Positions 8,778 to 56,919 of a stretch of DNA of 64,000 bases are shown piece by piece (position 1 is the stretch's first letter; each line of letters begins with the position of its first letter). Made by a program: the position numbers and the translations under genes. The DNA comes from Candidatus Giovannonibacteria bacterium (GTDB taxonomy: Bacteria; Patescibacteriota; Minisyncoccia; UBA11713; 2-01-FULL-45-33). Under the pieces are notes generated by a model. That model had not been told where the DNA came from. It saw only the letters and a program-made list of their open reading frames with translations, and did no database searches. Where the stretch lies: contig JACOXN010000004.1 in the NCBI GenBank assembly GCA_016176295.1, positions 6,655 through 70,654 of the forward strand. Direction: 5' to 3'.

Positions 8778-9165
8778 GGGGATGATTGGCCTCGAGGAGA
8801 GACGAATTTCATGCGCTCAGGCAGAGGATGTACGGTCACCTCTTTAAACATCCATACAAATCAATAAGTGCAAACTTATTTTCAAAGGCTAGGAACGTTG
8901 TTGCTTCCCTCTTCGGAGGTGTAGGCACGGCTGCTCTTCAACCTTCTTACGCTTTGGCGTAAGCATCTGACTTTCCGATTCTCGCTGAGAGATGTTCAGG
9001 TGTAATATAGCGAGACAGCATTGAGGAAAAGCTTCCCGATTCAGTGCTCGCAAATAGGGAGCAAAATCCCCGCCAAAAGCTAATAAGCATTTAGGCGGGC
9101 AAGTAAGCTTGTCAACCGCATTTTAGGAACCTTTCCCACCCGGGTTCGATTCCCGGCATCTCCAC
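8778..9165 (+). ncRNA. ssrA: tmRNA (ssrA), CCA not encoded
   Basis: 5' GGGGATGATTGG... resembles the tmRNA 5' end. The 5' strand GGGGATG pairs with the 3' strand CATCTCC (one G-U) to close an acceptor stem. Tag reading frame begins GCA AAC 93 nt from the 5' end (8870) and ends ...CCT TCT TAC GCT TTG GCG TAA (tag ending PSYALA). The 3' tRNA-like T-arm is CCGGG-TTCGATT-CCCGG. Lies directly downstream of smpB. Confidence 0.75.
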
Positions 9166-9171
9166 AAATTA

Positions 9172-36441: not shown

Positions 36442-37293
36442 CTATACCTTTGTCAATACCTCCGAACCATTTTTTGTTACCACCAGTGTGTGCTCGAAAT
36501 GCGCGGCAATTGAACCGTCGAAAGTAAGCCAAGTCCAACCGTCGGGGGCAAGCTTCACTCTGTAATGTCCCTGGGCGGCCATTGGCTCAATGGCTATCAC
36601 AAGACCCTCCTGAAGCTTAACACCGCTTCCGCGGTTCCCCCAATTCGGGATTTCAGGCTCTTCATGCACAGCTTTCCCTACACCATGACCCACAAGCTCC
36701 CGTACCACACCGAAACCTTCCTTTTCCAGATGACTCTGCACCGCAAAACCGATATCGCCGGTTTTAACTCCGGCTTTAACTTCGCGAATGCCGAGTTCGA
36801 GAGCTTTTTTGGTGGCAGCAACAAGTCTGAGAGCGGAATCTTTTGGATGAAAATTCTGGGTGGGGGCGGCCGCCGCGGAATTCAATTCAGACTTATTCCG
36901 CGGTGGGGCTAAAGAATTTTCAGACAAAAGATTCCATTCTCCAACAATCACGGTTTTAGCCGTATCCGTACAATATCCGTCGAACCACATGCCGATATCC
37001 AAACCAACAACGTCCCCTTTGCCTAAAATTCTTACGGAAGGAATACCGTGGACCACTTCGTCGTTCACTGAAACGCACAAAGAGGCGGGATATTTGGAAG
37101 AAGCCATATAAGCTTTGTATCCTTTGAAAGATGGCGTGCCGCCGGAGCGCAAGATAAGACACTCGGCCAGCTCGTCCAGTTCCATGGTTCTGACACCGGG
37201 CTTCACCGTCTTCACCACATCATTCAAAACGGCGGCCAGTTTTCTGCCGCCCTCCCGTAAAATATGGAGTTCTTTGTCGTTCTTTATTATCAC
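36442..37293 (-). CDS. map: type I methionyl aminopeptidase with internal insertion
   Basis: DIGMWFDGYCTDTAKT, HGVGK, HEEPEIP, EPM. Confidence 0.85.
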   Translation of the reverse strand: MIIKNDKELHILREGGRKLAAVLNDVVKTVKPGVRTMELDELAECLILRSGGTPSFKGYKAYMASSKYPASLCVSVNDEVVHGIPSVRILGKGDVVGLDIGMWFDGYCTDTAKTVIVGEWNLLSENSLAPPRNKSELNSAAAAPTQNFHPKDSALRLVAATKKALELGIREVKAGVKTGDIGFAVQSHLEKEGFGVVRELVGHGVGKAVHEEPEIPNWGNRGSGVKLQEGLVIAIEPMAAQGHYRVKLAPDGWTWLTFDGSIAAHFEHTLVVTKNGSEVLTKV

Positions 37294-37961
37294 AAACCCA
37301 AAGCTTTTATGATGTCTTTGTGGACATCTTCGATCGGCTGCTCTCCGTTGATTGTAACAATATTGTGCAGCCCCTCGATAAATTTAACAGCCGGCATTGT
37401 TTTATTGGCGTATTCATCGGTCCTCATTTGAAGCACTTCTTTATTGTCGAGATCCCGCGGCTCCAAAACACCGTCGCCCTCGGGGCAAGGGGTTCCGGGC
37501 ATAAAAGATTCGGAGCGCACATAAATATGTCTGCTGTCAAAATTGCAGGTGAGCCGTTTTTCGACTCTTTTTTTGAACTCGCCTTCGCTGATATCTATTA
37601 AAAATACGTAAATATTTTCTTTACCCAAAAATTTGACGACTTCGGGGAAAACAGCCTGGGCTTCGCACAACGTTCGCGGCGTGCCGTCGTATATAATACC
37701 TTTGGCTGTTTTGATGATTTCTCCGGTCTTTTCCAAAACCATGTGCGACGTCCATTCGGCTTCAAAAAGTTTTCCGGACTTGTAAAGCTCCACTTGCCGC
37801 TTCGTATCTGCGTCGTCGTGTGTTTTTATGTACTCCTTGCCTTCCCGGCTCGTGGTGAAATGATAAAAGCCGACCTTATCCGCCAAAAGCTTGGCCTGCG
37901 TTCCTTTGCCTGAAGCCGGCCGCCCAAAAAGAAAAATAGCGACTTTTTTATCCGTAGTCAT
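37290..37961 (-). CDS. adk: adenylate kinase
   Basis: GRPASGKGTQA P-loop, LID region with Cys. Confidence 0.85.
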   Translation of the reverse strand: MTTDKKVAIFLFGRPASGKGTQAKLLADKVGFYHFTTSREGKEYIKTHDDADTKRQVELYKSGKLFEAEWTSHMVLEKTGEIIKTAKGIIYDGTPRTLCEAQAVFPEVVKFLGKENIYVFLIDISEGEFKKRVEKRLTCNFDSRHIYVRSESFMPGTPCPEGDGVLEPRDLDNKEVLQMRTDEYANKTMPAVKFIEGLHNIVTINGEQPIEDVHKDIIKALGL

Positions 37962-37995: not shown

Positions 37996-39258
37996 TTAGC
38001 TGTAGGTGCGGAGGGAAAGCTGGGCTTCCACTTGTTTCGCGGTTTCCAAAACTACGGATACGACGATGAGGAGCGCGGTGCCTCCGATGGTCAGAGCAGA
38101 GAGACCGCTCAACGCCTGAATTATGAGCGGCAAGACGGCGATGATGCCGAGAAAAATAGCTCCGATGAGGACAATATGGCTTACTATTTTGTGGAGATAC
38201 ATCGAAGTAGAAGGGCCCGGACGAACACCGGGGATGAATGCGCCTGATTTTTGCAGATTATTCGAAATAGCTTCCGGATCGAAAGTAACCGCAGTATAAA
38301 AATACGTAAAAAGCACGACAAGAATGAAATACGCCGAAGCATACGCCCAGGAGTTGCCGAGGAAATTAAGTACAATAGAAGAAACCCCCTGCAAAAATGT
38401 GTTCGCAGAAGTGGCAAAATAACTCGCTATCATCTGCGGAAACAACAAAATGGAAAGCGCGAAAATTATAGGGATAACGCCAGCCTGGTTGACCCTCAAA
38501 GGAAGATACGTGGATGAACCGCCGTACATGCGCATCCCCCGCACGCGCTTGGCGTAATAGACCGGAATGGGACGCTCTCCTTCGCTGATTATTACCACCG
38601 CCGCAACCGTAATAAGCGCCACCACCACGAAGGAAATGATGCTTGGAAGCTGTGAAGGGTCGTAGGAAATGATTGTTTGTCGGACTGTCGTCGGAAACCG
38701 GGAAACTATACCTGCGAATATCATGACGGATACGCCATTGCCTATGCCATATTCGGAAATAAGCTCACCAAGCCACATGAGAAAGACAGAGCCTGCCGCC
38801 ACAATAATGACGTCCCCTATTTTCTCCGAAAAAGTAAGACTCAAAATACCCTGCCTTTCCAAAATGGTAAGCAGACCGAAACCCTGAAGAAGCGCGAGAG
38901 GCACCGTAAGCAATCGGGAAAACTGGTTAAATTTCTGCCGTCCCGCTTCGCCCTCCTCTTGATACATTTCTTTAAGCGCCGGGAAAATCATGGTCAAAAG
39001 CTGCATGATAATAGAGCCCGTAATGTACGGCCCCACTCCCAACATAACAATAGAAAGATTGTCCAAAACTCCTCCCGAAAACAGGTTGAGCAATCCGAAA
39101 ATCTGGTTTTGCGCGAAAAATTCGCGAAGTTTGGCGGCATCTATGCCCGGAACCGGAATTGCGGCGGTCAATCTGAAAATCGCAAGGAACGCAAAAAGGA
39201 ACAGAACTTTTTTTCTCAAATCCGGGTCGCTATAGAAAAGTTTTATTTTCCCCCACAT
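37996..39258 (-). CDS. secY: preprotein translocase subunit SecY
   Basis: 420 aa, 10 TM, position after rplO. Confidence 0.9.
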   Translation of the reverse strand: MWGKIKLFYSDPDLRKKVLFLFAFLAIFRLTAAIPVPGIDAAKLREFFAQNQIFGLLNLFSGGVLDNLSIVMLGVGPYITGSIIMQLLTMIFPALKEMYQEEGEAGRQKFNQFSRLLTVPLALLQGFGLLTILERQGILSLTFSEKIGDVIIVAAGSVFLMWLGELISEYGIGNGVSVMIFAGIVSRFPTTVRQTIISYDPSQLPSIISFVVVALITVAAVVIISEGERPIPVYYAKRVRGMRMYGGSSTYLPLRVNQAGVIPIIFALSILLFPQMIASYFATSANTFLQGVSSIVLNFLGNSWAYASAYFILVVLFTYFYTAVTFDPEAISNNLQKSGAFIPGVRPGPSTSMYLHKIVSHIVLIGAIFLGIIAVLPLIIQALSGLSALTIGGTALLIVVSVVLETAKQVEAQLSLRTYS

Positions 39259-46001: not shown

Positions 46002-46424
46002 TTAAAACGCGTCTATTACGCCTCCTTCTTTCAGCGTTACGATAGCCTTTTTAAAACCGGACTTTGTTCCTTCAATCCTGCCGACGCGTCTTTTTTTCTC
46101 AGGCATGTTCATAACATGCACGGAGCCGACTTTGACATGATATCTGTCTTCAACGGCTTTTTTTACCATTATTTTGTTGGCTTTCGGCATTACTTTAAAT
46201 ATATATTTGGTTTCCCCTTCCGACGACATCATTCCGCCGGCTTTTTCCGAAATATGCGGGGCCAAAAAAACACGCGGGCCCATTTCGCTTTTCCCTCTTG
46301 CCTTCAGATCGGCTTTCTTTTCCTCAACCGGAGTTTCCGAAGGTTTCTCGGCCTTCAAAGCCCGCTTTTGGGCGGTTTTCTCAGCTTCCTTTTTTTGAAA
46401 TCTTTGTAGAAAATCAAATGCCAT
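46002..46424 (-). CDS. rplW: 50S ribosomal protein L23 (with ~47-aa basic N-terminal extension, or internal start at MGPRV)
   Basis: C-terminal 90 aa matches L23. N-terminal K/A/E-rich extension overlaps the rplD stop. Confidence 0.8.
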   Translation of the reverse strand: MAFDFLQRFQKKEAEKTAQKRALKAEKPSETPVEEKKADLKARGKSEMGPRVFLAPHISEKAGGMMSSEGETKYIFKVMPKANKIMVKKAVEDRYHVKVGSVHVMNMPEKKRRVGRIEGTKSGFKKAIVTLKEGGVIDAF

Positions 46425-47067
46425 ATGTTTTTTTGAGTTCGTCTATCGAAGCTTCGTCTAATACCAAATATTTGTGGTTCAATATCAAATTTGTGTTCAA
46501 ATTCCTGGGCTCTTTGGCCTGAACGAAAGGCAAGTTTTTTATGGAACGCACAATATCGTTCTCTTTGGGGATAGCCACAAGAGATTTTCCTCCGACAACG
46601 CCCAAATATTTAAATCCTCCTTTTTCACGTAAATTCTTGAAGATCCGGAACGCTTCTTTGGTTTTGGGCGCCGGTACGCTGAACTTGTCCAAAAGGACGA
46701 TTTCATTGTCCTTTAATTTTTTTGAAAGAAGGGAAAACAAGGCTCCGCGCTTCATTTTTTTGTTTATCTTCACCTGATAATTCCGTTCTTTGAGCGGCCC
46801 GTGCGTAACTCCTCCGCCTCTCCATATCGGAGAACGGATGGAACCGTGCCTCGCTCTTCCCAAATGTTTCTGTTTCCAGGGCTTCTTGCCTCCTCCTCTG
46901 ACCTGGCTACGGTCTTTGGAGTCAGCCCAGGGCATACGGGCGTTCGCCCTTTCCCCGTCGTAGACCTGCTTTACCAATGCGGGCCGCCAGTCAACGCCAA
47001 AAATACCTTCCGGTACTTCCGCCGCCCCGACTTTCTGCCCTTTTACATTATAAGTATCGATTTTCAT
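46414..47067 (-). CDS. rplD: 50S ribosomal protein L4
   Basis: Pattern and position. Confidence 0.9.
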   Translation of the reverse strand: MKIDTYNVKGQKVGAAEVPEGIFGVDWRPALVKQVYDGERANARMPWADSKDRSQVRGGGKKPWKQKHLGRARHGSIRSPIWRGGGVTHGPLKERNYQVKINKKMKRGALFSLLSKKLKDNEIVLLDKFSVPAPKTKEAFRIFKNLREKGGFKYLGVVGGKSLVAIPKENDIVRSIKNLPFVQAKEPRNLNTNLILNHKYLVLDEASIDELKKTYGI

Positions 47068-47252: not shown

Positions 47253-47489
47253 TTATTTATAGGTATTATCGTTTCTGCGTTCGATTGCCAGCAAGAATAT
47301 CTTTTTATTAGCGATGCGATAAATAATCCGAATATTTCCTTTACGAATCCGAAAAATATCATTTCTACCCTTAAGTTTTTTAATATCCAGATCATCCAGC
47401 CGATCTTTTTTGATCCGCATCAAAATATCTCTTACCCATTCCCTCTCCTTGGGTGACAACCGAGCGAGAGCTTTATCGATGCGGTCCAT
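47253..47489 (-). CDS. RelE/ParE-superfamily type II toxin
   Basis: 78 aa, C-terminal GNIRIIYRIANKKIFLLAIERRNDNTYK (RIIY...IL.I.HR..Y signature). 3-nt gap after the upstream antitoxin. Confidence 0.65.
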   Translation of the reverse strand: MDRIDKALARLSPKEREWVRDILMRIKKDRLDDLDIKKLKGRNDIFRIRKGNIRIIYRIANKKIFLLAIERRNDNTYK

Positions 47490-47492
47490 AAT

Positions 47493-47735
47493 TTAGAGGC
47501 GTGACAAAATTTGGCTCAATTCCACACCTCCTTTTTTAAATTTAGTGAAATCAACGGCGGTCTCCCACACACCTTCCCCTTCATCAACCGGAGTGATATT
47601 AAACACCGGCTCCGAACGACGAATCACGGTAAATGATTTGCCTTTGTTGATTTCGGAAATATAACTCTCCATGTGTTCTCTTAACTCTTTTAGCCCAACA
47701 AACTTATCTTTGGTATTGATTTTGTTCATACGCAT
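47493..47735 (-). CDS. Phd/YefM-like antitoxin (true start possibly the second ATG at 47729)
   Basis: 80 aa, VGLKELREHMESYISEINKGKSFTVIRRSEPVFNITPVDE pattern. Sits immediately upstream of the toxin. Confidence 0.5.
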   Translation of the reverse strand: MRMNKINTKDKFVGLKELREHMESYISEINKGKSFTVIRRSEPVFNITPVDEGEGVWETAVDFTKFKKGGVELSQILSRL

Positions 47736-47782: not shown

Positions 47783-48373
47783 TTACCCCCTCACTTCGAG
47801 CAGGGTTCCGCGGTTGCCGGGAACGGCACCTTCAACGGCCATCATGTTCCGGTCGGGAATGATTTTTATTACCTTGAGATTTTTTACCGTTATCCTGTCG
47901 CCTCCCATTCTTCCCGCCATGCGCTTCCCTTTCAAAACCCTCTGCGGCCAGACTGCTCCGATAGAACCCGGCTCACGCTCCGAGTGCTTTTGGCCGTGAG
48001 TGCGTCGGCCTCCTTTAAATCCGTGCCTTTTTACCACACCCTGAAATCCTTTTCCCTTGGTTATGCCGGAAATATTTACCTTCTCTCCTTCCTTGAAAGT
48101 TTCAACTGTAATTTTGTCCCCCACATTGAGGTCGGAAACATCCCGGGCTTCCCTGAAATATCTGTAATTTCCAAGCTTTTTCTGGGGCTTTTTGGCTCTC
48201 TTATCTTTTTTGGAGCCAAACCCAATCTGCACGGCGATATATCCGTCCTTTTCCTTAGTTTTAGGCTGTGTCACAAATATCGGACCGGCCTCAAGCCAGG
48301 TAACGGGGTGTATCTTCCCGACATCGTCGAATATCTGGGACATTTCTATTTTTTTAGCGAGAATGAATTTCAT
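47783..48373 (-). CDS. rplC: 50S ribosomal protein L3
   Basis: MKFILAKKIEMSQIFDDVGKIHPVTWLEAGP. Confidence 0.9.
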   Translation of the reverse strand: MKFILAKKIEMSQIFDDVGKIHPVTWLEAGPIFVTQPKTKEKDGYIAVQIGFGSKKDKRAKKPQKKLGNYRYFREARDVSDLNVGDKITVETFKEGEKVNISGITKGKGFQGVVKRHGFKGGRRTHGQKHSEREPGSIGAVWPQRVLKGKRMAGRMGGDRITVKNLKVIKIIPDRNMMAVEGAVPGNRGTLLEVRG

Positions 48374-48497
48374 AGCAATTGAAGAATATCATATTATAAA
48401 CCTTGCAAAAAAGCAAACAATACGCTAATAAAAGTGAGGCGGAGCAGGAAGCACATTAACAACCCACATGCTGCCCAGGCGGCAGCTAGGAGGAAAT

Positions 48498-49676
48498 ATG
48501 GAACATTCCCAGGCGGAATTGTTGAGAAAGTTAAGCAAAATATACGACGAGCCGGAATTGATTTCAATTGTAAATCTTTGCGGCACCCCGTCATTAGCTG
48601 AGGAGATAGCGGAAAGGCTTGAATACCCGACCTCGCTGCTTCGAGAAACACGCTACGCCGGCATTCTAAAGAAAGACTTTCCAGAAATTTACGCGAAGAC
48701 AGTCCAAAAGATCATGCCACTCTGCTTTAATATGAACAAAAAAGACAGGACAAAAACCAAACATTTTTCCTGTAATTGGACCTCTCGTGAAAAAACTAAC
48801 GAATTTGAACTGGCAGGCACCATGCTAATAACTCCACATGCATTTCTCCCGCCGGTTTTTTGGGATTATGAATTGTTTTTTGAAAAAAACAACGAACTTG
48901 TTTTTTCGTCTAAAACCGCAATTCCGGCACACAAGAGAACAGACGTAAGATGCATCTTTACCGAAGGTTCTCGATCAATTCCTGTCGGCCTGCTGCTGGT
49001 CTGCAACAAACACAGTAACGAATTCACATTTCGCAGAACAATAAAAGACGACGAAACGTACTGGTGGAGCAGAACTAATCCGGTGGGCAATAGGCTTACG
49101 CTTGGGCTAAAGGGCGAAATATTTGGGGCAGGAATTGAAAAAAAGTCCTATAACAATGTGCATCGGCAAGTTACGCTTCGTACCCTTGGCGACACTGAGA
49201 AAAAGTTACTTGAACCGTGGGACACTACATACTTACCAAGATGTGTTATCTATCATCTTGTTCTGGAGGAACAGCTATGGTATCCGGACGGCCAGGGTGG
49301 AAGCCTACGGTATTCGCTAGAAATGAGATATAAGCCGCATGCAGACAACTTGCAAGAAAAAAAAGATACACTGGCCTCTCGAGTAATATTCCATATGCCT
49401 TTTAATCACTATGCGTATAATACCGGGCCAGACTACAAAATCTTAACTTCCGTATTCCAAATAGACCGCGCACCGGAGCCTACAAGCAATAGGGAGAAGT
49501 TTGCCGACCGCGTGGCAAAAATGCTCAAAGGCACGCCAGAACAAATAGAATTCCTGCCAACTCTCCAAAATTTTTTTTCTTTTAAACGAAATAGTGATTT
49601 TTTTGAAATTTATAACGAGGGAGCACATTGGGATCCTCTTGTGCTTCCTAAAACAAAAGAAGCTAAAGCCGAATAA
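48498..49676 (+). CDS. hypothetical protein (~392 aa), opposite strand, inserted between rpsJ and rplC
   Basis: AGGAGG RBS 4 nt before the ATG at 48498. Lower-GC coding sequence. Bounded downstream by stacked hairpin terminators. No family recognised. Confidence 0.55.
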   Translation: MEHSQAELLRKLSKIYDEPELISIVNLCGTPSLAEEIAERLEYPTSLLRETRYAGILKKDFPEIYAKTVQKIMPLCFNMNKKDRTKTKHFSCNWTSREKTNEFELAGTMLITPHAFLPPVFWDYELFFEKNNELVFSSKTAIPAHKRTDVRCIFTEGSRSIPVGLLLVCNKHSNEFTFRRTIKDDETYWWSRTNPVGNRLTLGLKGEIFGAGIEKKSYNNVHRQVTLRTLGDTEKKLLEPWDTTYLPRCVIYHLVLEEQLWYPDGQGGSLRYSLEMRYKPHADNLQEKKDTLASRVIFHMPFNHYAYNTGPDYKILTSVFQIDRAPEPTSNREKFADRVAKMLKGTPEQIEFLPTLQNFFSFKRNSDFFEIYNEGAHWDPLVLPKTKEAKAE

Positions 49677-49774
49677 TCAAAAGCCACCCCGACAAATCGG
49701 GACGGCTTTTTTTGTTTGTTCCAGTTCTTTAGGTAATCCCGACGTAAAGTCGGGATGAAGGTTTGACCGTCAAA

Positions 49775-49807
49775 AAACCAACCTGCATCCGCAGGTTGGT
49801 TTTTTGA
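49775..49807. terminator. bidirectional terminator (ccaacctgc-atcc-gcaggttgg with A-run/T-run), preceded by further hairpins at 49737-49760
   Basis: Perfect 9-bp stem flanked by aaaaaa and tttttt. Confidence 0.6.
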
Positions 49808-49817
49808 GTCAATTCCT

Positions 49818-50225
49818 TCACATCTTCACCTCAATGTCCACTCCGGCGGGGAGGCTGAGGTTAGTCAGCGCGTCCACTATTTTGGGAACCGGGTTTAAAA
49901 TATCGATAACGCGCTTGTGAACCCGCATTTCGAACTGTTCTCTCGCGTTTTTGTGGACGAAAGAGGAGCGATTGACGGTATATTTCTTTATCTCTGTAGG
50001 CAGAGGTATGGGGCCCACGATGACGGCGCCGTACCGCAAGGCGGTATCCACAATCTGCTTGATGGATGCATCCAGTATTTTGTGATCATAAGCCCGCACA
50101 CGTATCCGCAGCTTCGCTTCAGCGCCTGCTTCTTGCTTTTCCACCTTTTTGGAATGGGCCTGCCTTGAATCTGGGCGGGTTTTTGAAACTTTCGGCGCTG
50201 ATTTAGTTTTTGGTTTGGTTGCCAT
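49818..50225 (-). CDS. rpsJ: 30S ribosomal protein S10 with ~38-aa basic N-terminal extension
   Basis: [70 protein letters not shown]. Confidence 0.85.
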
Positions 50226-50319: not shown

Positions 50320-51513
50320 TTATTTAAGAATTTTGGTTACCACTCCCGCGCCAACGGTCTTTCCTCCTTCGCGGATGGCAAAGCGCTGCTTTTCTTCCAA
50401 CGCCACCGGTGCTATCAACTTAACGTTGAATTTGACGGTGTCTCCCGGCATAACCATTTCGGTGCCCTCCGGAAGAGTTACTTCACCGGTCACATCCGTC
50501 GTCCTGATGTAGAACTGGGGCTTGTAGCCTGCGAAGAACGGCGTGTGCCGGCCTCCTTCTTCTTTTGTCAAAACGTATATTTCCGACTCGAATTCAGTGT
50601 GGGGAGTGACGGAATTGGGCTTGGACAAAACCTGCCCGCGCTCAACATCCTCTTTTTTCAATCCGCGGAGCAAGATTCCCGCATTGTCTCCCGCCATGCC
50701 TTTGTCCAGTTGCTTGTTGAACATTTCGATGCCGGTAACGGTAGTCTTTTGGGTATCTTTCAAGCCGACAACACTTACTTCCTCTCCGACTTTGACCTCA
50801 CCTCTCTCGATCCTTCCGGTCACGACCGTTCCTCTGCCTTCAATGGAGAATATGTCCTCGATGGGCATGAGGAAAGGCTTTTCAATGTCTCTTACGGGTT
50901 CGGGGATGTATTCGTCCAGGGTTTTTGCCAGTTCCAATATAGACTTTACCCACTCATCATCTTTGGAAGTAGCTGCCAGCGCTTTTAACGCCGAGCCCTT
51001 GATTATCGGAGTTGTGTCGCCCGGATAGTGGTATTTGGAAAGAAGCTCCCTTACTTCGGTTTCGACAAGGTCAATCAACTCTTTGTCGTCCACCATATCA
51101 ACCTTGTTCAAAAAAACGATTATGTTGGGCACTCCAACCTGGTGAGCGAGCAAAATGTGCTCTCTCGTTTGAGGCATTGGGCCGTCTGCAGCGGACACGA
51201 CCAAAATTGCGCCATCCATCTGAGCGGCTCCGGTGATCATGTTCTTGATGTAGTCAGCGTGCCCCGGAGCATCGATGTGCGCATAGTGGCGCTTTTCGGT
51301 TTCATACTCGGAGTGGTGAAGAGCGATAGTGATACCGCGCTGTCTTTCTTCCGGAGCTTTGTCTATATCATCAACTTTTTCAAGCTTTACTTTGAAACCC
51401 GCCAAATTTAGAGAATGCAAAATAGCGGCTGTTAAAGTAGTCTTGCCGTGGTCTACGTGACCAATAGTGCCCACGTTGAGGTGCGGCTTTGTCCGTTCAA
51501 ATTTCTCTGCCAT
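50320..51513 (-). CDS. tuf: elongation factor Tu
   Basis: [31 protein letters not shown] ... full-length EF-Tu. Confidence 0.95.
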
Positions 51514-51653
51514 ATATTTACAATATAAAATTGCCAATAAAAGACGCCCGAAAGCGTATGGCTATATATTACAGGCTGTAAAAATACTGTCAACCCCAGA
51601 GAAAGCAAAACATGGGAATAAAAAAAGCGGCATAGATACCGCCTGCAACTCGC

Positions 51654-52016
51654 TTATTTTGTCTGCAAAATGTCGCAAATCCCTCCGCCTATTCCCAATA
51701 CTGGGTACTTTGCCGTAAAGGCCCGGATATTCTCGAAATAGTTATTTTTGTCGATTTTACCGTCCAATTTCGGGATAAACCAAAACTTCATTTCTTCCTT
51801 GTCGGCGATGAGAGCCCATTTGCCGTTTATTGTCCAAATGTCCCAACGCTCATAGGCATAAAGGACCAGCTCGCCGCAAAGAACCTCATTAGTTTCAATT
51901 TGGCCCGCAGTTTCTCCGACTGGAAGCCGGGGCATTGGAACGGGTCCGGCCAGAGCGAGTCTTGTAAGAACCAGCAGTAAAAACATTCCGACCAAAATTA
52001 GAACTGCCTTTTTCAT
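51654..52016 (-). CDS. small secreted hypothetical protein (signal peptide)
   Basis: MKKAVLILVGMFLLLVLTRLALA signal. Confidence 0.4.
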   Translation of the reverse strand: MKKAVLILVGMFLLLVLTRLALAGPVPMPRLPVGETAGQIETNEVLCGELVLYAYERWDIWTINGKWALIADKEEMKFWFIPKLDGKIDKNNYFENIRAFTAKYPVLGIGGGICDILQTK

Positions 52017-52116
52017 TTTTTTCTCCTCCTTCGTCTAAACAAAGTAAAGCGTATAAACAGGTCTTTGACAAGTCCAGCCGACTTAAACATAAAAAATAAC
52101 CCCGTTCGCATTTTTT

Positions 52117-52752
52117 TTAATTTGCGCCGGGGTCTATGCCTAAAAAATCGGCAATACGTTTAAGGTGCCAGTTGTAATCGTCGTTCACAAACTTTTTTTG
52201 CTCTCTGGAAACAGGGTTCCATTGGCCTTTCGTGGATTCCCAATCCCCATCCGTGTAATACTCGATTACGCCAAATCCGGGATCATCGCGCTGGGCGCGG
52301 GTGAACGGCTCAAGACTGGTAAGGCCGGGTTTCATAAACTTCTGGTATTTGTTGAACTCGGCGTCGACGGAGTCATCCGAAATATGCTGTTCGAGCAGAG
52401 TCAAAAAATTTTGGCCGAAAGGATCGTGCGCATTTTCCGGTTTGGAAAAGTCACGGTTCGTGTAGAAAAAATCTATTGTGAGGGTTTTCTTCCCCCTGTT
52501 GTAGACTTCCACGCCAACCTCATAGAGGTCAAAATGACTGACAAAGCGATATAGATACCTTTTTCTTTCATAAGACGTGCCCGCGCCCAACACACTTACC
52601 ACATCGGCTTTTTTGACCGCCTCATTAGCAACCTTTTGCGCAATATTATGAGGCGTCGGAAAAGGCGCGCGCCGAAAGAGTGGAGAACCCATCGCATAAC
52701 TGCAACCGGACAAAATAAAAAAGAGAAACGGGGCCAAAAAGAGTTTTTTCAC
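52117..52752 (-). CDS. hypothetical lipoprotein (lipobox LSGC)
   Basis: MKKLFLAPFLFFILSGCS. Confidence 0.45.
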   Translation of the reverse strand: MKKLFLAPFLFFILSGCSYAMGSPLFRRAPFPTPHNIAQKVANEAVKKADVVSVLGAGTSYERKRYLYRFVSHFDLYEVGVEVYNRGKKTLTIDFFYTNRDFSKPENAHDPFGQNFLTLLEQHISDDSVDAEFNKYQKFMKPGLTSLEPFTRAQRDDPGFGVIEYYTDGDWESTKGQWNPVSREQKKFVNDDYNWHLKRIADFLGIDPGAN

Positions 52753-52827
52753 AGTACCTCCTCAAAAGACGTAAATCTTTTATTTTTATACGCCTTTTTT
52801 AGCAAAAGTCAAGTTTTTGCTGCGCAC

Positions 52828-53190
52828 CTACTCTTTATCGTGCGCAACGCATGTTCTGGCCGCGGGGTTCGCCCTAAGCCTGGCCTCGCCTATTTCCTCT
52901 CCGCCGGCCGCGCATGTGCCGAATTTACCGTGATTCGCACGTTCCAAGGCCTCATTTATTTCCCGGAGCCGCGACTCAAGACCCAGTTCAACCGGGGCGC
53001 GATTCTCATACTCCGCTTCTTGGTCAGCTATTTCTTCTTTCGCCGCGTTCATTACGTTCAAGTTCGGATATTTTACGTTCCAATCCTCCGGAGCTTCCGG
53101 ATTCCTTTCCGCAATAGATTTCAAGTCCTCTTCTATCTCAAGTTTTTCTTCCTCTAATTTTTTTCTGTAGTAGTCTAAATCTAAGGTCAT
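52828..53190 (-). CDS. DksA/TraR-family protein (only two of the four zinc-finger Cys retained)
   Basis: Coiled-coil N-terminus. C-terminal ERANHGKFGTCAAGGEEIGEARLRANPAARTCVAHDKE. Confidence 0.6.
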   Translation of the reverse strand: MTLDLDYYRKKLEEEKLEIEEDLKSIAERNPEAPEDWNVKYPNLNVMNAAKEEIADQEAEYENRAPVELGLESRLREINEALERANHGKFGTCAAGGEEIGEARLRANPAARTCVAHDKE

Positions 53191-53231
53191 AAAAAAATTT
53201 TACTAAACTATATCTTTGCGGTCAATGGATG

Positions 53232-54143
53232 CTATTGGCGCGGCGGAATCAGGATCAAAAGCTCCAAAATGCGTCCTAGCGCGTTCTCTGAATTTGAAAC
53301 AACCACGAACTGTTTAGAAAAAATACTGTAACCCATAACTATACCCCCGTCTTTGTTTCTTAAAACTCTTGCGTCGTTATTTTTTATTACAAAATCTTCA
53401 AAAGGCCTGTCCTGGAGATACGCGTAATCCTGATTGCCCAAAAACGGCTTCCAATCCGACCACATTGTTTTTTCCCAGCCCAGCATGGCTTCAAAAGCGC
53501 GCGAAAAATCATTTACTTTGAATGCCGCCGCGAAATCGCTCGAACGCTCACCGTAAACTATGTAAGCGTTGAACTCTGGGTAAAGCGAAGCGGTGAGCAG
53601 CGGCGGAGGCACCCAGCTCATCAGCTTTATGAACTCTACGGAATCGGTGTATTTCGCCGTTCCCGAACTTTCCGTCTTGATGGGAAAATAGATAACTGTG
53701 TTATAGCGGAGGCTTTTCCCAAGCTCGCTTTGGATAGCCCTTAAAAGCTCTCCGGAATTGAAATTCGCGGAATAAGGAAGAACGGAAATTTCTTTTTCTC
53801 CGTCCACGGCCACGAAATTCTTAAAAGCCTGCGGGGGCTTTTCAATGCTATTTTTTATGGCAAGCCTGGGCAGAATAATATACTCAACGGACACATACCC
53901 CAAGCCGCCGATAACGGCTGCGGCCGCGAGGGTTATCATCGCGTATTTTAAAATGTGGCTGTTAACAATAGATGAAGCAAGGGATTTTTTCTCCCCCGCC
54001 ATGTAAGATTTCGTCGCGATGTCCAAAGTCGAGAGCCCTTTGTCGCGCATATAGATCTCGGCATCAGTCTTGAAGGTCCTGATATTGGGAAGCTTATCCT
54101 TATCCGCGGCATCGGCTGTTTTTTTCTCATCCTCCATAACCAC
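53232..54143 (-). CDS. hypothetical membrane-anchored protein
   Basis: N-terminal TM, ORF track. Confidence 0.4.
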   Translation of the reverse strand: MVMEDEKKTADAADKDKLPNIRTFKTDAEIYMRDKGLSTLDIATKSYMAGEKKSLASSIVNSHILKYAMITLAAAAVIGGLGYVSVEYIILPRLAIKNSIEKPPQAFKNFVAVDGEKEISVLPYSANFNSGELLRAIQSELGKSLRYNTVIYFPIKTESSGTAKYTDSVEFIKLMSWVPPPLLTASLYPEFNAYIVYGERSSDFAAAFKVNDFSRAFEAMLGWEKTMWSDWKPFLGNQDYAYLQDRPFEDFVIKNNDARVLRNKDGGIVMGYSIFSKQFVVVSNSENALGRILELLILIPPRQ

Positions 54144-54263
54144 ATCTTAGCACGAAAAAATTGTAATTTTGGCCAAACAAAAAAACCGCAGGCAATGCCT
54201 TGCGATTAATGTTGATATGAATAATCCGGTGGTATTTTGTCAATGATTTTCGAAGAGAATACT

Positions 54264-54665
54264 TTAACCCTGAACCGCTATTTCGACGCCGAATTTTTCT
54301 TTGATGAAAGATTTTATTTTATCTACTTCGCTTTTGAGAATAATAAATTCCTCCTCGCGGTCGGTCAGACGTTTAAGAAATTTATCCAGCGTGACAGTTA
54401 AAGATTGGATTTGTTCTCTTAAACCATTTAAATCTTGTTTGATTTCTGTAATATCTTGCCTGACTAAAGCCATATCAACCTTAAGATTACCGACATCCTT
54501 CTTGACCAAGACCATATCAGACTTAAGTTCGCTGACATCTTTCTTCACCAGGGACATATCACCCTTAAGTTCGCTGACGTCTTTAACTAAAGGTGCCACT
54601 CGCGCATCTAAAGTTTCATCAACAATTTGCTTTATGCCATCTAAATCCTTCTTGGTTAATACCAT
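54264..54665 (-). CDS. coiled-coil protein with 4 x 14-aa tandem repeats (LVKKDVSELKxDMx), paralog of 58161-58460
   Basis: 42-bp DNA tandem repeat at ~54471-54600. C-terminus similar to the ORF at 58161. Confidence 0.45.
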   Translation of the reverse strand: MVLTKKDLDGIKQIVDETLDARVAPLVKDVSELKGDMSLVKKDVSELKSDMVLVKKDVGNLKVDMALVRQDITEIKQDLNGLREQIQSLTVTLDKFLKRLTDREEEFIILKSEVDKIKSFIKEKFGVEIAVQG

Positions 54666-54705
54666 AAATTAATGATACTACACTGAAACTGCAAGTAAAT
54701 TGGAA

Positions 54706-56919
54706 TCATCTGCGTCCGCCGCCTCCTCTGCGTGGCGGCCCGCCTCGGCCTCTTTCCTGGCGTTCTCTTTCTTCCATTTGTCTCCGCGCTACGGCCTCGC
54801 CGCTCCTCCTGTCGTCTTCGGACTTAAGTTCTAAGCTGGTCACCGCTTTAATGGACAAATTGAGCCTTCCTTTTTCGTCCACACCGATTATTTTGACCGG
54901 CACTTCGTCGCCAGGGGAAACCACATCCGTCACCTGGTTGACCCTGAAATTAGCCAGTTCCGAAACGTGTACCAGCCCCTCCTGATGCGGAGCGATCTCA
55001 ACCATTGCTCCGAACGGGAAAATTCTGGTCACGATGCCTCGCGTCTCTTCTCCAGGCACAAATTCTTTAGTCAGTGAAATTATCTGCTCTTCCGCGGCTT
55101 TCAGATTCTCCACGCGCGGCGCCGTAATAAACACGGTACCGTCCTGCTCGATATCTATTTCACATCCAGTGCTTTCAATTATCGAATTAATGACTTTGCC
55201 TCCCGCTCCGATAACGTCGCGAATTTTATCGGGGTTTATCTGCATCTTCAAAATGCGCGGAGCGAATTCTGAAAGTTCGGGCCGAGGAGCCGCAAGTTCA
55301 CTTTTTATGACTTCCAATATCTCAAGACGGGCTTCTTTGGCCTGAATAAATGCTTCTTTCATTATCTTCAAGGGAATACCTGCTACTTTAACGTCCATCT
55401 GCACCGCGGTAATGCCGTTCTTCGTACCGGCAACTTTGAAATCCATATCGCCGTGGTGGTCTTCCGGGCCCTGGATATCGGTGAGAACTTTGTAATGCTT
55501 TTCATCGTGCATCATAAGACCCATGGCGATACCGGCCGCGATATCCTTTATCGGAACACCCGCATCCATAAGCGCGAGAGAAGAAGCGCAAACCGAACCC
55601 ATCGAAGAAGAACCGTTGGAAGACAGTGTCTCCGACACGACTCTTATCGTGTATGGAAAACTTTCCGGATCGGGAATGATAGCGGAAAGCGCGCGCTCGG
55701 CAAGATGCCCATGGCCGATATCGCGCCTAGCAGGCCCCCTCATCGGTTTTATTTCTCCCACCGAAAAAGGAGGAAAATTGTAGTGGTGCATGAAACGCTT
55801 TTTTGCGCGTATTTCCATCCCTTCTATCAGCTGCACGTCTCGCGGCGCTCCCAAAGTAGCGGCGGAAAGAATATGGGTTTCTCCTCTGTAAAACACGGCC
55901 GAGCCGTGCACGCGCGGCAAAATGTGAGCCTTGGCGGAAAGCGGCCTGATTTGTTTTGATCCTCTGCCGTCCGGACGTTTTTCGGATTCGATTATGTTCT
56001 TATGGACTATCTCATCTATCGTGTCCTCAAAAAGCGTGGCCGCGACATGCGGCGAAAAATCCGGAAATTCTTCCACGCAGATGCCGAGCCATTCGGTTTT
56101 CAGCTCGTTCATCGCTTCGTAACGGTTTAATTTTTCTTTGATATAAATCGATTCCTCGAGTTTCGCCATGATCCGCTTTCTGAAAACCTGCGCAATGTCG
56201 GACGGAACCGACACGATGTGCGGCTCGACTTTTTTTTGTCCCATTTTTTTTATAATGTCTGCCTGCCACGCGGTAAGCTTGTCTATTTCTGAAACGGCGA
56301 GCTCCAATGCCTCCTGCATATCGGCCTCGGTTATTTCCTTGGCGCCCGCCTCAATCATATTAACTTTTCCGTCCTTGCCGCAGATTATGGTATCGAGCTC
56401 AGCTTCTTCTATTTCTTTGTAAGTGGGATTTATAATATATTTCTGGCCGATCTTTGAAACCCGCACGGCGCCGATGGGACCATCCCATAAAATATCGGAA
56501 GTTCCCAAAGAAAGCGACGTTGCAATGATAGCCGGGATATCGGGCTCGTTTTCTTCATCCACGGAAAGTGCCAGTACTATCACTTGCACTTCGTTTCTGG
56601 TTTTGGAATTAAAAAGCGGACGTATAGAACGGTCGATAAGACGCGATGTAAGAACAGCTTCGTCCGAAGCTTTTCCTTCTCTCCTCACGAAACGGGAACC
56701 CAAAATTCTTCCGGCAGCATAGAACTTTTCCTCAAAATCCACCGTAAGCGGAAAAAAATCAATCCCCTCGCGCGCGCTTTTGGCCTGCACTGCCGTCGCC
56801 AAAACTATCGTCCCGCCGTAAGTAACAAGGCAAGAGCCGTTGGCTTGATGGGCCAGGTCAGTAAACTCGGCGGTTAATGTGCGGCCGCCGACTTCCGTAG
56901 TAAATTTTTTACTGGTCAT
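54706..56919 (-). CDS. pnp: polyribonucleotide nucleotidyltransferase (PNPase) with RG-rich C-terminal tail
   Basis: 737 aa, two RNase PH domains, KH and S1. Tail RRQMEERERQERGRGGPPRRGGGGRR. Confidence 0.9.
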   Translation of the reverse strand: MTSKKFTTEVGGRTLTAEFTDLAHQANGSCLVTYGGTIVLATAVQAKSAREGIDFFPLTVDFEEKFYAAGRILGSRFVRREGKASDEAVLTSRLIDRSIRPLFNSKTRNEVQVIVLALSVDEENEPDIPAIIATSLSLGTSDILWDGPIGAVRVSKIGQKYIINPTYKEIEEAELDTIICGKDGKVNMIEAGAKEITEADMQEALELAVSEIDKLTAWQADIIKKMGQKKVEPHIVSVPSDIAQVFRKRIMAKLEESIYIKEKLNRYEAMNELKTEWLGICVEEFPDFSPHVAATLFEDTIDEIVHKNIIESEKRPDGRGSKQIRPLSAKAHILPRVHGSAVFYRGETHILSAATLGAPRDVQLIEGMEIRAKKRFMHHYNFPPFSVGEIKPMRGPARRDIGHGHLAERALSAIIPDPESFPYTIRVVSETLSSNGSSSMGSVCASSLALMDAGVPIKDIAAGIAMGLMMHDEKHYKVLTDIQGPEDHHGDMDFKVAGTKNGITAVQMDVKVAGIPLKIMKEAFIQAKEARLEILEVIKSELAAPRPELSEFAPRILKMQINPDKIRDVIGAGGKVINSIIESTGCEIDIEQDGTVFITAPRVENLKAAEEQIISLTKEFVPGEETRGIVTRIFPFGAMVEIAPHQEGLVHVSELANFRVNQVTDVVSPGDEVPVKIIGVDEKGRLNLSIKAVTSLELKSEDDRRSGEAVARRQMEERERQERGRGGPPRRGGGGRR

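Follow-up and report, generated by a model that had tools for sequence, protein, structure and literature searches.

Few bacterial gene pairs keep together as stably as rpsJ and rplC. In the canonical S10 operon, rpsJ-rplC-rplD-rplW-rplB and the genes that follow are read as one transcript, which in Escherichia coli is under L4-mediated control. Elsewhere in bacterial chromosomes, accessory genes flanked by core genes occupy integration hotspots, and in T-even phages free-standing homing endonuclease genes are located between conserved genes ("intronless homing"). Here, we describe an opposite-strand gene for a 392-aa protein inserted between rpsJ and rplC in a 64,000-nt stretch of DNA from Candidatus Giovannonibacteria bacterium (contig JACOXN010000004.1, positions 6,655 to 70,654; hereafter the window, to which coordinates refer unless a locus is named). 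As in the canonical operon, the order after rplC is L4, L23, L2, S19, L22, and S3. Unlike the canonical operon, and unlike most relatives, where rpsJ is followed immediately by rplC on the same strand, rpsJ and rplC of the window are parted by a convergent gene and three hairpins, and rplC and rplD by a toxin-antitoxin (TA) pair.

On balance, we favor the view that the inserted gene is a selectively maintained, insulated accessory cassette in a recurrent insertion site, encoding a soluble protein with a fold that has no detectable relative. The original prediction, made from the letters of the window, had placed an opposite-strand open reading frame (ORF) in a ~1.4 kb gap at this junction, and that layout stands: the rpsJ-rplC spacer (48374-49817) measures 1444 nt and holds one + strand ORF, leaving spacers of 124 nt to rplC and 141 nt to rpsJ. 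The elements of the insert, with the evidence for each in brackets, are as follows.

48498-49676, + strand: inserted ORF, 392-aa protein (ORF list, homolog alignment, and constraint).
48488-48493, + strand: Shine-Dalgarno (SD) sequence AGGAGG, 4 nt before the ATG and invariant in four loci (sequence and alignment).
48470-48486, + strand: leader hairpin GCTGCC-CAGGC-GGCAGC, just upstream of the SD (alignment and fold).
48403-48431, + strand: putative ORF promoter, TTGCAA, 17 nt, TAATAA (sequence and alignments).
48374-48497, no strand: divergent rplC-ORF spacer, 124 nt (sequence; probable role as rplC promoter region).
49679-49710, no strand: hairpin T1, AAAAGCC..GGCTTTTTTT, which immediately follows the stop codon of the ORF and resembles a terminator for it (terminator scan and repeat search).
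49736-49756, no strand: hairpin T2, ATCCCGAC-GTAAA-GTCGGGAT, with no flanking T-run and unique in the window (fold).
49770-49807, no strand: hairpin T3, with perfect 17-nt arms TCAAAAAACCAACCTGC / GCAGGTTGGTTTTTTGA, unique in the window (repeat search and fold).

Constraint on the ORF argues that it is a genuine gene under purifying selection. Nei-Gojobori counts in three pairwise comparisons gave proportions of nonsynonymous differences (pN) of 0.17-0.18 against saturated synonymous proportions (pS) of 0.67-0.72, pN of the flanking rplC and rpsJ being 0.19 and 0.16, respectively. The pN/pS ratio was ~0.25, and the rate ratio dN/dS between lineages was ~0.1. Between the window and locus L001 (homologous loci are denoted by L numbers), amino acid identity was 69% for the inserted ORF (67-69% between lineages), 86% for tuf, 76% for S10, 72% for L3, and 64% for L4, such that conservation of the gene between these two lineages matches that of L3 and L4. 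A start at 48498, rather than at the upstream ATG at 48468, agrees with the homologs and with the NCBI protein HYT01_01005, to which the ORF corresponds with 100% identity and coverage. As had been noted from the sequence, the ribosome-binding site is strong and the GC content of the ORF (42.7%) is below that of the flanking ribosomal protein genes (rplC, 48.6%; rpsJ, 50.5%; window, 46.4%); GC content at third codon positions (GC3) was the third lowest among 49 window genes. We rejected GC as a sign of recent transfer, the deviation being modest and not seen in L001, L005, or distant members of the family. The gene had been described as acquired and accessory: its accessory, patchy character is borne out by the comparisons below, whereas recent acquisition is at odds with 67-69% identity between lineages, on a par with L3 and L4. 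Where present, the gene is a long-standing resident.

The synteny sample consisted of the rplC loci of the 80 most similar GTDB species, 74 of which had rpsJ upstream. Across these 74 loci the rpsJ-rplC gap had a median of ~120 nt, and in six of the closest Giovannonibacteria it was 1-40 nt, consistent with the gene being an insert relative to the usual state. A single locus among the 80, L016 (the same as L005), carried a family member. Reverse-oriented homologs occupied this junction in L001, L003, L004, and L005, and three or four lineages other than that of the window share the placement. The first three loci represent one species from three samples, in which tuf and rpsJ are followed by the ORF, by small genes of 112 aa and 97 aa, and then by rplC; the order in L005 is tuf, rpsJ, a 74-aa gene, ORF, rplC, Phd, and ParE. 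In L002, rplC lies divergently upstream of the ORF. In a neighbor-joining tree of tuf, S10, and L3 with bootstrap, the three carriers did not form a clade and were nested among noncarriers (84-100% bootstrap). L005 grouped with L013 and L015 (94%) and with L019 (100%), L001 grouped with L020 (84%) and with L012, L017, and L018 (97%), and the window branched outside both groups (80%). In the carriers' sister species the rpsJ/rplC junction was empty or held other cargo. Because only some species have the gene and the carriers are not a clade, we consider it accessory; the synteny comparison suggested in the original prediction thus finds it at this junction in few lineages. No recombination footprint was detected in the carrier flanks, which follow the species tree up to and including the 5' end of rplC and the 3' end of rpsJ. 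The data would fit a single old insertion that was cleanly lost several times as well as they would fit several gains.

In L002 (1340-1439 and 1-29), the - strand on the far side of the ORF, where rpsJ would be expected, encodes KKIEMSQVFDDKGRVANLM and then a stop. This fragment corresponds to nt 18-62 of rplC (39 of 44 positions identical to L001 rplC), and the near side opens with the genuine start of rplC. The 1.4-kb L002 contig breaks off at the same A/T homopolymer on both ends, 7 bases being present at one end and 8 at the other. The pattern may be either a duplicated rplC 5' end, that is, an insertion scar, or an assembly loop. A candidate rplC remnant in the ORF-rpsJ spacer of the window scored within the shuffled null and was dropped.

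The site itself is variable, as is the next junction downstream. The genes on either side of the insert, in the order of the operon, are the following.

50320-51537, - strand: tuf (ORF list and Pfam).
49818-50225, - strand: rpsJ (S10, 135 aa), convergent with the inserted gene (Pfam Ribosomal_S10, E 1.2e-32).
47783-48373, - strand: rplC (L3, 196 aa), divergent from the inserted gene (Pfam Ribosomal_L3, E 1.7e-16).
47493-47735, - strand: Phd-like antitoxin gene (subthreshold Pfam and NCBIfam matches).
47253-47489, - strand: ParE-like toxin gene (subthreshold Pfam and NCBIfam matches).
46414-47067, - strand: rplD (L4), followed by L23 and the remaining genes of the canonical series.

Gaps of 415-1607 nt between rpsJ and rplC were found in 9 of the 74 loci (~12%), and the cargo at these expanded junctions included HicA/HicB, RelB/YafQ, a Methyltransf_11 protein, a small 61-74-aa protein, and orphans. 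The small protein (MASK..D.LAGM.KRGFD...LEDMLA.P.KK) matches no Pfam family; its gene immediately follows rpsJ, on the strand of the operon, in three species of two subclades, with different cargo after each (L005:2686-2910, L013:2848-3051, and L017:3240-3425). The rplC-rplD gap was 150-2352 nt in Giovannonibacteria (L012-L021), in contrast to 1-19 nt in more distant Parcubacteria, and its cargo varied by species, including a 234-aa opposite-strand protein (L015:4606-5870) and ~six genes (L017:4600-6956). The picture suggested by these loci is one of two permissive junctions, rpsJ/rplC and rplC/rplD, with repeated gain and loss in Giovannonibacteria.

The TA pair one gene beyond the insert had been joined with the ORF into a single island. 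Phd-like and ParE-like genes do exist there, with Pfam scores below gathering (PhdYeFM, 18.7 bits, cut-off 29.8; ParE_toxin, 20.4 bits, cut-off 23), and the rplC/rplD junction that holds them is the variable one just described. With rplC between them, the ORF and the pair are two separate insertions, rather than one island. The pair (47253-47735) also occurs together in L005:182-664, with 95% (Phd) and 82% (ParE) amino acid identity, whereas 13 other Giovannonibacteria loci lack it, that of the sister species of L005 among them. Identity of Phd between the window and L005 exceeds that of EF-Tu (84%) and L3 (77%), which suggests lateral exchange of, or unusual constraint on, the TA pair.

Both spacers around the inserted ORF carry structure. 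Three hairpins form in the fold of the 141-nt spacer toward rpsJ, which has an energy of -65 kcal/mol whichever strand is folded (z = -8.2 and -8.6), and 0 of 200 shuffles was as good, in agreement with the stacked hairpins proposed downstream of the ORF (49700-49807). T1 is conserved in L002 with compensatory changes, and another hairpin occupies the equivalent place in L001 and L005. By sequence criteria, T1 and T3 qualify as intrinsic terminators, with a hairpin and T-run on both strands; with an A-run and a T-run on opposite sides of each, they resemble terminators in both directions. T3 is the first element that an rpsJ transcript would meet. On the opposite side, the 6-bp leader hairpin was kept in four loci, as were the start codon and the SD, with changes on both sides in two of the six hairpin pairs. 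Paired cells amounted to 95.8%, 21 of 500 shuffles were as good, and the alignment comprised only four sequences, such that support for this hairpin is modest. Promoter-like sites in L001 and L002 align with that proposed for the ORF (TTGACG, 18 nt, TAACAA/TAATAA). The 124-nt spacer was 83% identical at the nucleotide level between the window and L005, compared with 68% for the rplC coding sequence. Its - strand has a perfect TATAAT (48398-48393) that overlaps a + strand TATTAT, and the rplC leader would be very short, as this TATAAT lies just 22 nt before the rplC ATG. No SD was recognizable for rplC. A permissive Rfam scan of both spacers returned nothing but hairpin matches far below threshold, and no known ribosomal protein leader RNA. 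Around the window cassette, a search for terminal inverted repeats and target duplications yielded chance-level repeats only.

We propose that the inserted gene would operate as a self-contained transcription unit, consisting of promoter, leader with conserved hairpin, strong SD, coding sequence, and terminator. It lies reversed at a junction that behaves as a recurrent harbor for accessory cargo, as does rplC/rplD. The convergent gene, together with the hairpin/T-run elements acting in both directions, would end the tuf-rpsJ transcript at the 49770-49807 hairpin, and rplC and the downstream genes would start from a promoter in the 124-nt divergent spacer. If rpsJ transcription does terminate, the rplC promoter must be in that spacer. 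A split of the S10 operon transcript, as originally proposed, is plausible.

The failure to recognize a family in the original prediction was followed by the same outcome in databases, as Pfam, NCBIfam, PHROGs, PADLOC, and the sequence profiles of the PDB gave no match for the inserted protein, and neither Pfam nor PADLOC matched any of 26 family members. Its description as an orphan was too strong, given ~30 divergent clusters. A word-indexed search of 5.8 billion proteins recovered just three relatives (53-67% identity), and an exhaustive hidden Markov model (HMM) search of 1.84 billion representatives (E ≤ 1e-3) recovered 30, one of which, P0029 (2337 aa), was rejected as a spurious match from a repeat protein. 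Full-length alignment retained 26 sequences with 18-69% identity to the query, and a further word-indexed search with the profile of these 26 added nothing. Nearly all clusters were singletons, and two members carry organism names, a Giovannonibacteria bacterium and a "Parcubacteria group bacterium." Trp, Pro, Gly, and Tyr made up most of the conserved positions, among which no catalytic pattern was evident. The family proteins are soluble, rich in Trp and Cys, and mostly mildly acidic (isoelectric point, pI, mostly 5.3-6.8), and no signal peptide or membrane segment was predicted in them. The inserted protein falls outside any described family and is probably a soluble cytoplasmic member of a small family attributed to Parcubacteria.

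Structure prediction, the other check that had been suggested, gave a confident AlphaFold model from the 26-sequence alignment, with a predicted local distance difference test score (pLDDT) of 84.8 and a predicted template modeling score (pTM) of 0.86; a model from a 4-sequence alignment (pLDDT 47) was too poor and was not used. The model has five N-terminal helices (~residues 1-70) followed by ~14 beta strands and three later helices. Foldseek found no relative in the PDB (best E 0.08, template modeling score (TM) ≤ 0.2) or in the viral set BFVD (best E 0.08, TM ≤ 0.2). Two candidate features were rejected: a helix-turn-helix (HTH) in the N-terminal domain, for which a profile of residues 1-72 found no HTH in PDB sequences or Pfam, and an internal duplication of the beta body (hhalign probability 0.2%).

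Distant members of the family, denoted by P numbers, were found in the following contexts.

P0022, L011:1170-2339, same strand as its neighbors: between secY and adk, carrying a promoter-like site of its own and also a strong terminator.
P0026, L092:6001-7179: directly upstream of rpmF, then nusB-NUDIX and rnc.
P0011: convergent with uvrC.
P0016: upstream of guaB.
P0007: beside an AMP-binding enzyme gene.

Translation genes adjoin 3 of ~7 independent family placements, in genomes of fewer than ~1000 genes. The link to translation drawn from these placements is suggestive but weak. With low confidence, we propose that the inserted protein has a nonenzymatic role, in binding or as a scaffold, with a possible link to translation or to RNA metabolism; independent members are also found at secY/adk and upstream of rpmF-nusB-rnc. 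Across 7 independent contexts no defense genes were found beside family members, only TA pairs being nearby, and no phage, plasmid, or viral-contig copies were found. Upstream of its start codon, P0022 has two leader copies of the motif CCCGGTTGGCT (L011:1063-1079 and 1141-1157), spaced by ~78 nt. The window has secY (37996-39258) and adk (37290-37961) next to each other.

An explanation that we judge unlikely, albeit deserving of attention, is that the protein is a lineage-specific housekeeping factor of the ribosome or translation, which entered next to rpsJ once in the ancestor of Giovannonibacteria and was lost several times thereafter; binding to ribosomes, ribosomal proteins, or nascent rRNA, it would be kept near ribosomal protein genes for coregulation. 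Constraint like that on ribosomal proteins, the strong SD, and flanks that follow the species tree, as vertical descent predicts, all fit such a factor, as do the three independent placements by translation genes (rpsJ/rplC, secY/adk, and upstream of rpmF-nusB-rnc). Other members, however, lie beside uvrC, guaB, and an AMP-binding gene, the family is very rare, nearly every cluster being a singleton, and the window gene reads against the operon and is insulated from it. The gene is also missing from most close relatives, the junctions of which are tight, and this would require at least five clean deletions, and its mildly acidic proteins (pI mostly 5.3-6.8) are unlike most RNA binders.

The defense or abortive-infection (Abi) role raised in the original prediction found no backing, and we regard as quite improbable that the gene is a single-gene anti-phage module forming an island with the nearby TA pairs. 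Patchiness among close relatives, somewhat low GC in the window, and TA pairs adjacent or one gene off in the window, L001, and L005 would be expected of such a module, and the beta body of the L005 copy, strongly diverged while leader and N-terminal domain are kept, could be under diversifying selection. However, TA pairs fill the same junctions in species without the inserted gene, hence their proximity would reflect the site and not a system, and GC equals that of the neighbors in L001, L005, and the distant loci. PADLOC-DB v2 gave no match (query, E ≤ 1; 26 members, E ≤ 0.1), Pfam identified neither an Abi domain nor one of the nuclease, NTPase, TIR, or similar kinds, and there was no membrane segment and no structural match to any effector in the PDB or viral set. 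Neighbors of distant members are housekeeping genes with no defense genes among them, copies on phages, plasmids, or viral contigs were lacking, and overall purifying selection is as strong as for ribosomal proteins.

Slightly less credible to us is a selfish cassette that spreads into conserved essential-operon junctions, whether through cleavage and repair in the manner of homing or through Campbell-type integration of a circle carrying a piece of the target, with the protein promoting the spread. The same site is patchily occupied among related species, and members are autonomous promoter-gene-terminator units at normally tight conserved-operon junctions; moreover, the rplC 5' fragment on the far side of the L002 ORF is what a single crossover in rplC would leave. 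Yet, in a contig of 1.4 kb, the L002 pattern may stem from an assembly loop, and the window has no rplC remnant in its spacer and neither terminal inverted repeats nor target duplications. Nor was there any nuclease or recombinase motif or fold, phage, plasmid, or viral-contig copy, or co-transferred tract in the flanks, and each locus has a single copy. The boldest version, to which we assign only a slim chance, is that of a new self-propagating single-gene cassette whose novel-fold protein drives insertion into junctions of essential, highly conserved operons, namely rpsJ/rplC, secY/adk, and the position upstream of rpmF, for example via a target-carrying circle, an idea prompted by the hint of a duplicated rplC 5' end in L002. 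If this were true, the essential genes on either side would protect the cassette against deletion. Finally, a divergent regulator of the rplC operon, its N-terminal helices binding the DNA of the 124-nt spacer and its beta body sensing a ligand, is the least probable of all. In its favor, each of the four Giovannonibacteria lineages has the gene reading away from rplC or from a TA-rplC unit, conservation of the spacer exceeds that of the coding sequences beside it, and the N-terminal segment is superficially HTH-like. Against it, neither the PDB, searched with a profile of this domain, nor Pfam yielded an HTH protein or family, and distant members lack a conserved partner from which they diverge.

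The reading that we favor, a maintained and insulated accessory gene at a recurrent insertion site, faces several points of its own. Patchiness could stem from one ancestral insertion and many clean losses, and a simple vertical history does not explain the L005 copy, which is just 44% identical to the window protein while its flanks are 77-95% identical (tuf, 84%; S10, 84%; L3, 77%; Phd, 95%). The taxonomic range of the family rests on few named records, and a first GTDB scan with family motifs, which found nothing, excludes close relatives only, as the 40%-identical L005 copy was missed too. The proposed promoters were read from the sequence and were not listed by a consensus scan, the statement that the predicted fold has no structural relative covers the PDB and the viral set only, and the placements by translation genes could reflect where insertions survive, since single-gene insertions may persist where deletions reaching essential neighbors are lethal. 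In the L005 copy itself (L005:1476-2603), promoter and leader are kept (83% nucleotide identity) and the N-terminal domain retains 67-80% amino acid identity, with the beta-rich body down to 10-47%. Divergence of the body could reflect relaxed constraint, diversifying selection, or partial gene replacement.

The locus matters because a pair as stable as rpsJ-rplC is here broken by a conserved, backward, and apparently insulated gene. It bears on operon transcription in the very small genomes of the candidate phyla radiation (CPR) and on the persistence of accessory genes under strong genome reduction. CPR genomes hold many unknown families, of which the inserted one is an example; as a conserved family with a confident predicted structure, the protein is a reasonable target for structural and interaction studies. 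Our literature search on inserts in CPR ribosomal protein operons or at rpsJ-rplC found nothing relevant.

Other features of the window lie outside the insert. Its S10 (135 aa) has a 35-residue Lys-rich N-terminal extension, the extensions of relatives being shorter (118-119 aa in total). No fusA lies upstream of tuf (51654-56919), and the window therefore departs here from the layout of the canonical str operon. The genes found there encode a 120-aa protein with an N-terminal hydrophobic segment and a 211-aa putative lipoprotein, followed further upstream by a DksA/TraR zinc-finger protein (52828-53190), a 303-aa protein, and PNPase (54706-56919). A tmRNA gene (8778-9167; Rfam RF00023, 85.6 bits) was the sole Rfam family to reach its gathering score in the window.

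Compared with known mobile systems, the inserted gene differs from insertion sequences and transposons in having no transposase family, terminal inverted repeats, or target-site duplication. With the homing endonuclease genes of T-even phages it shares the form of a single autonomous gene in a conserved-gene junction, sporadically present at the same site among relatives; unlike them, it has a cellular setting and flanks without coconversion, and its family (26 members) lacks a GIY-YIG, HNH, LAGLIDADG, PD-(D/E)xK, or other nuclease signature. Type II TA modules (Phd/ParE, HicAB, and RelB/YafQ) use the same two junctions and are equally patchy, but the inserted gene encodes a single large protein with no TA-family match and reads against the operon, whereas TA pairs are mostly co-oriented with it. 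Like an integration hotspot, the rpsJ/rplC interval is flanked by core genes, empty in most relatives, and filled with differing cargo in others; unlike one, it lies inside the S10 operon at a normally adjacent pair, is marked by no integrase, tRNA, or repeat, and takes cargo of one or two genes, with no large island. By analogy, the phenomenon appears closest to these core-gene-flanked accessory hotspots, what is unusual being its position inside the S10 operon and its reverse, insulated orientation.

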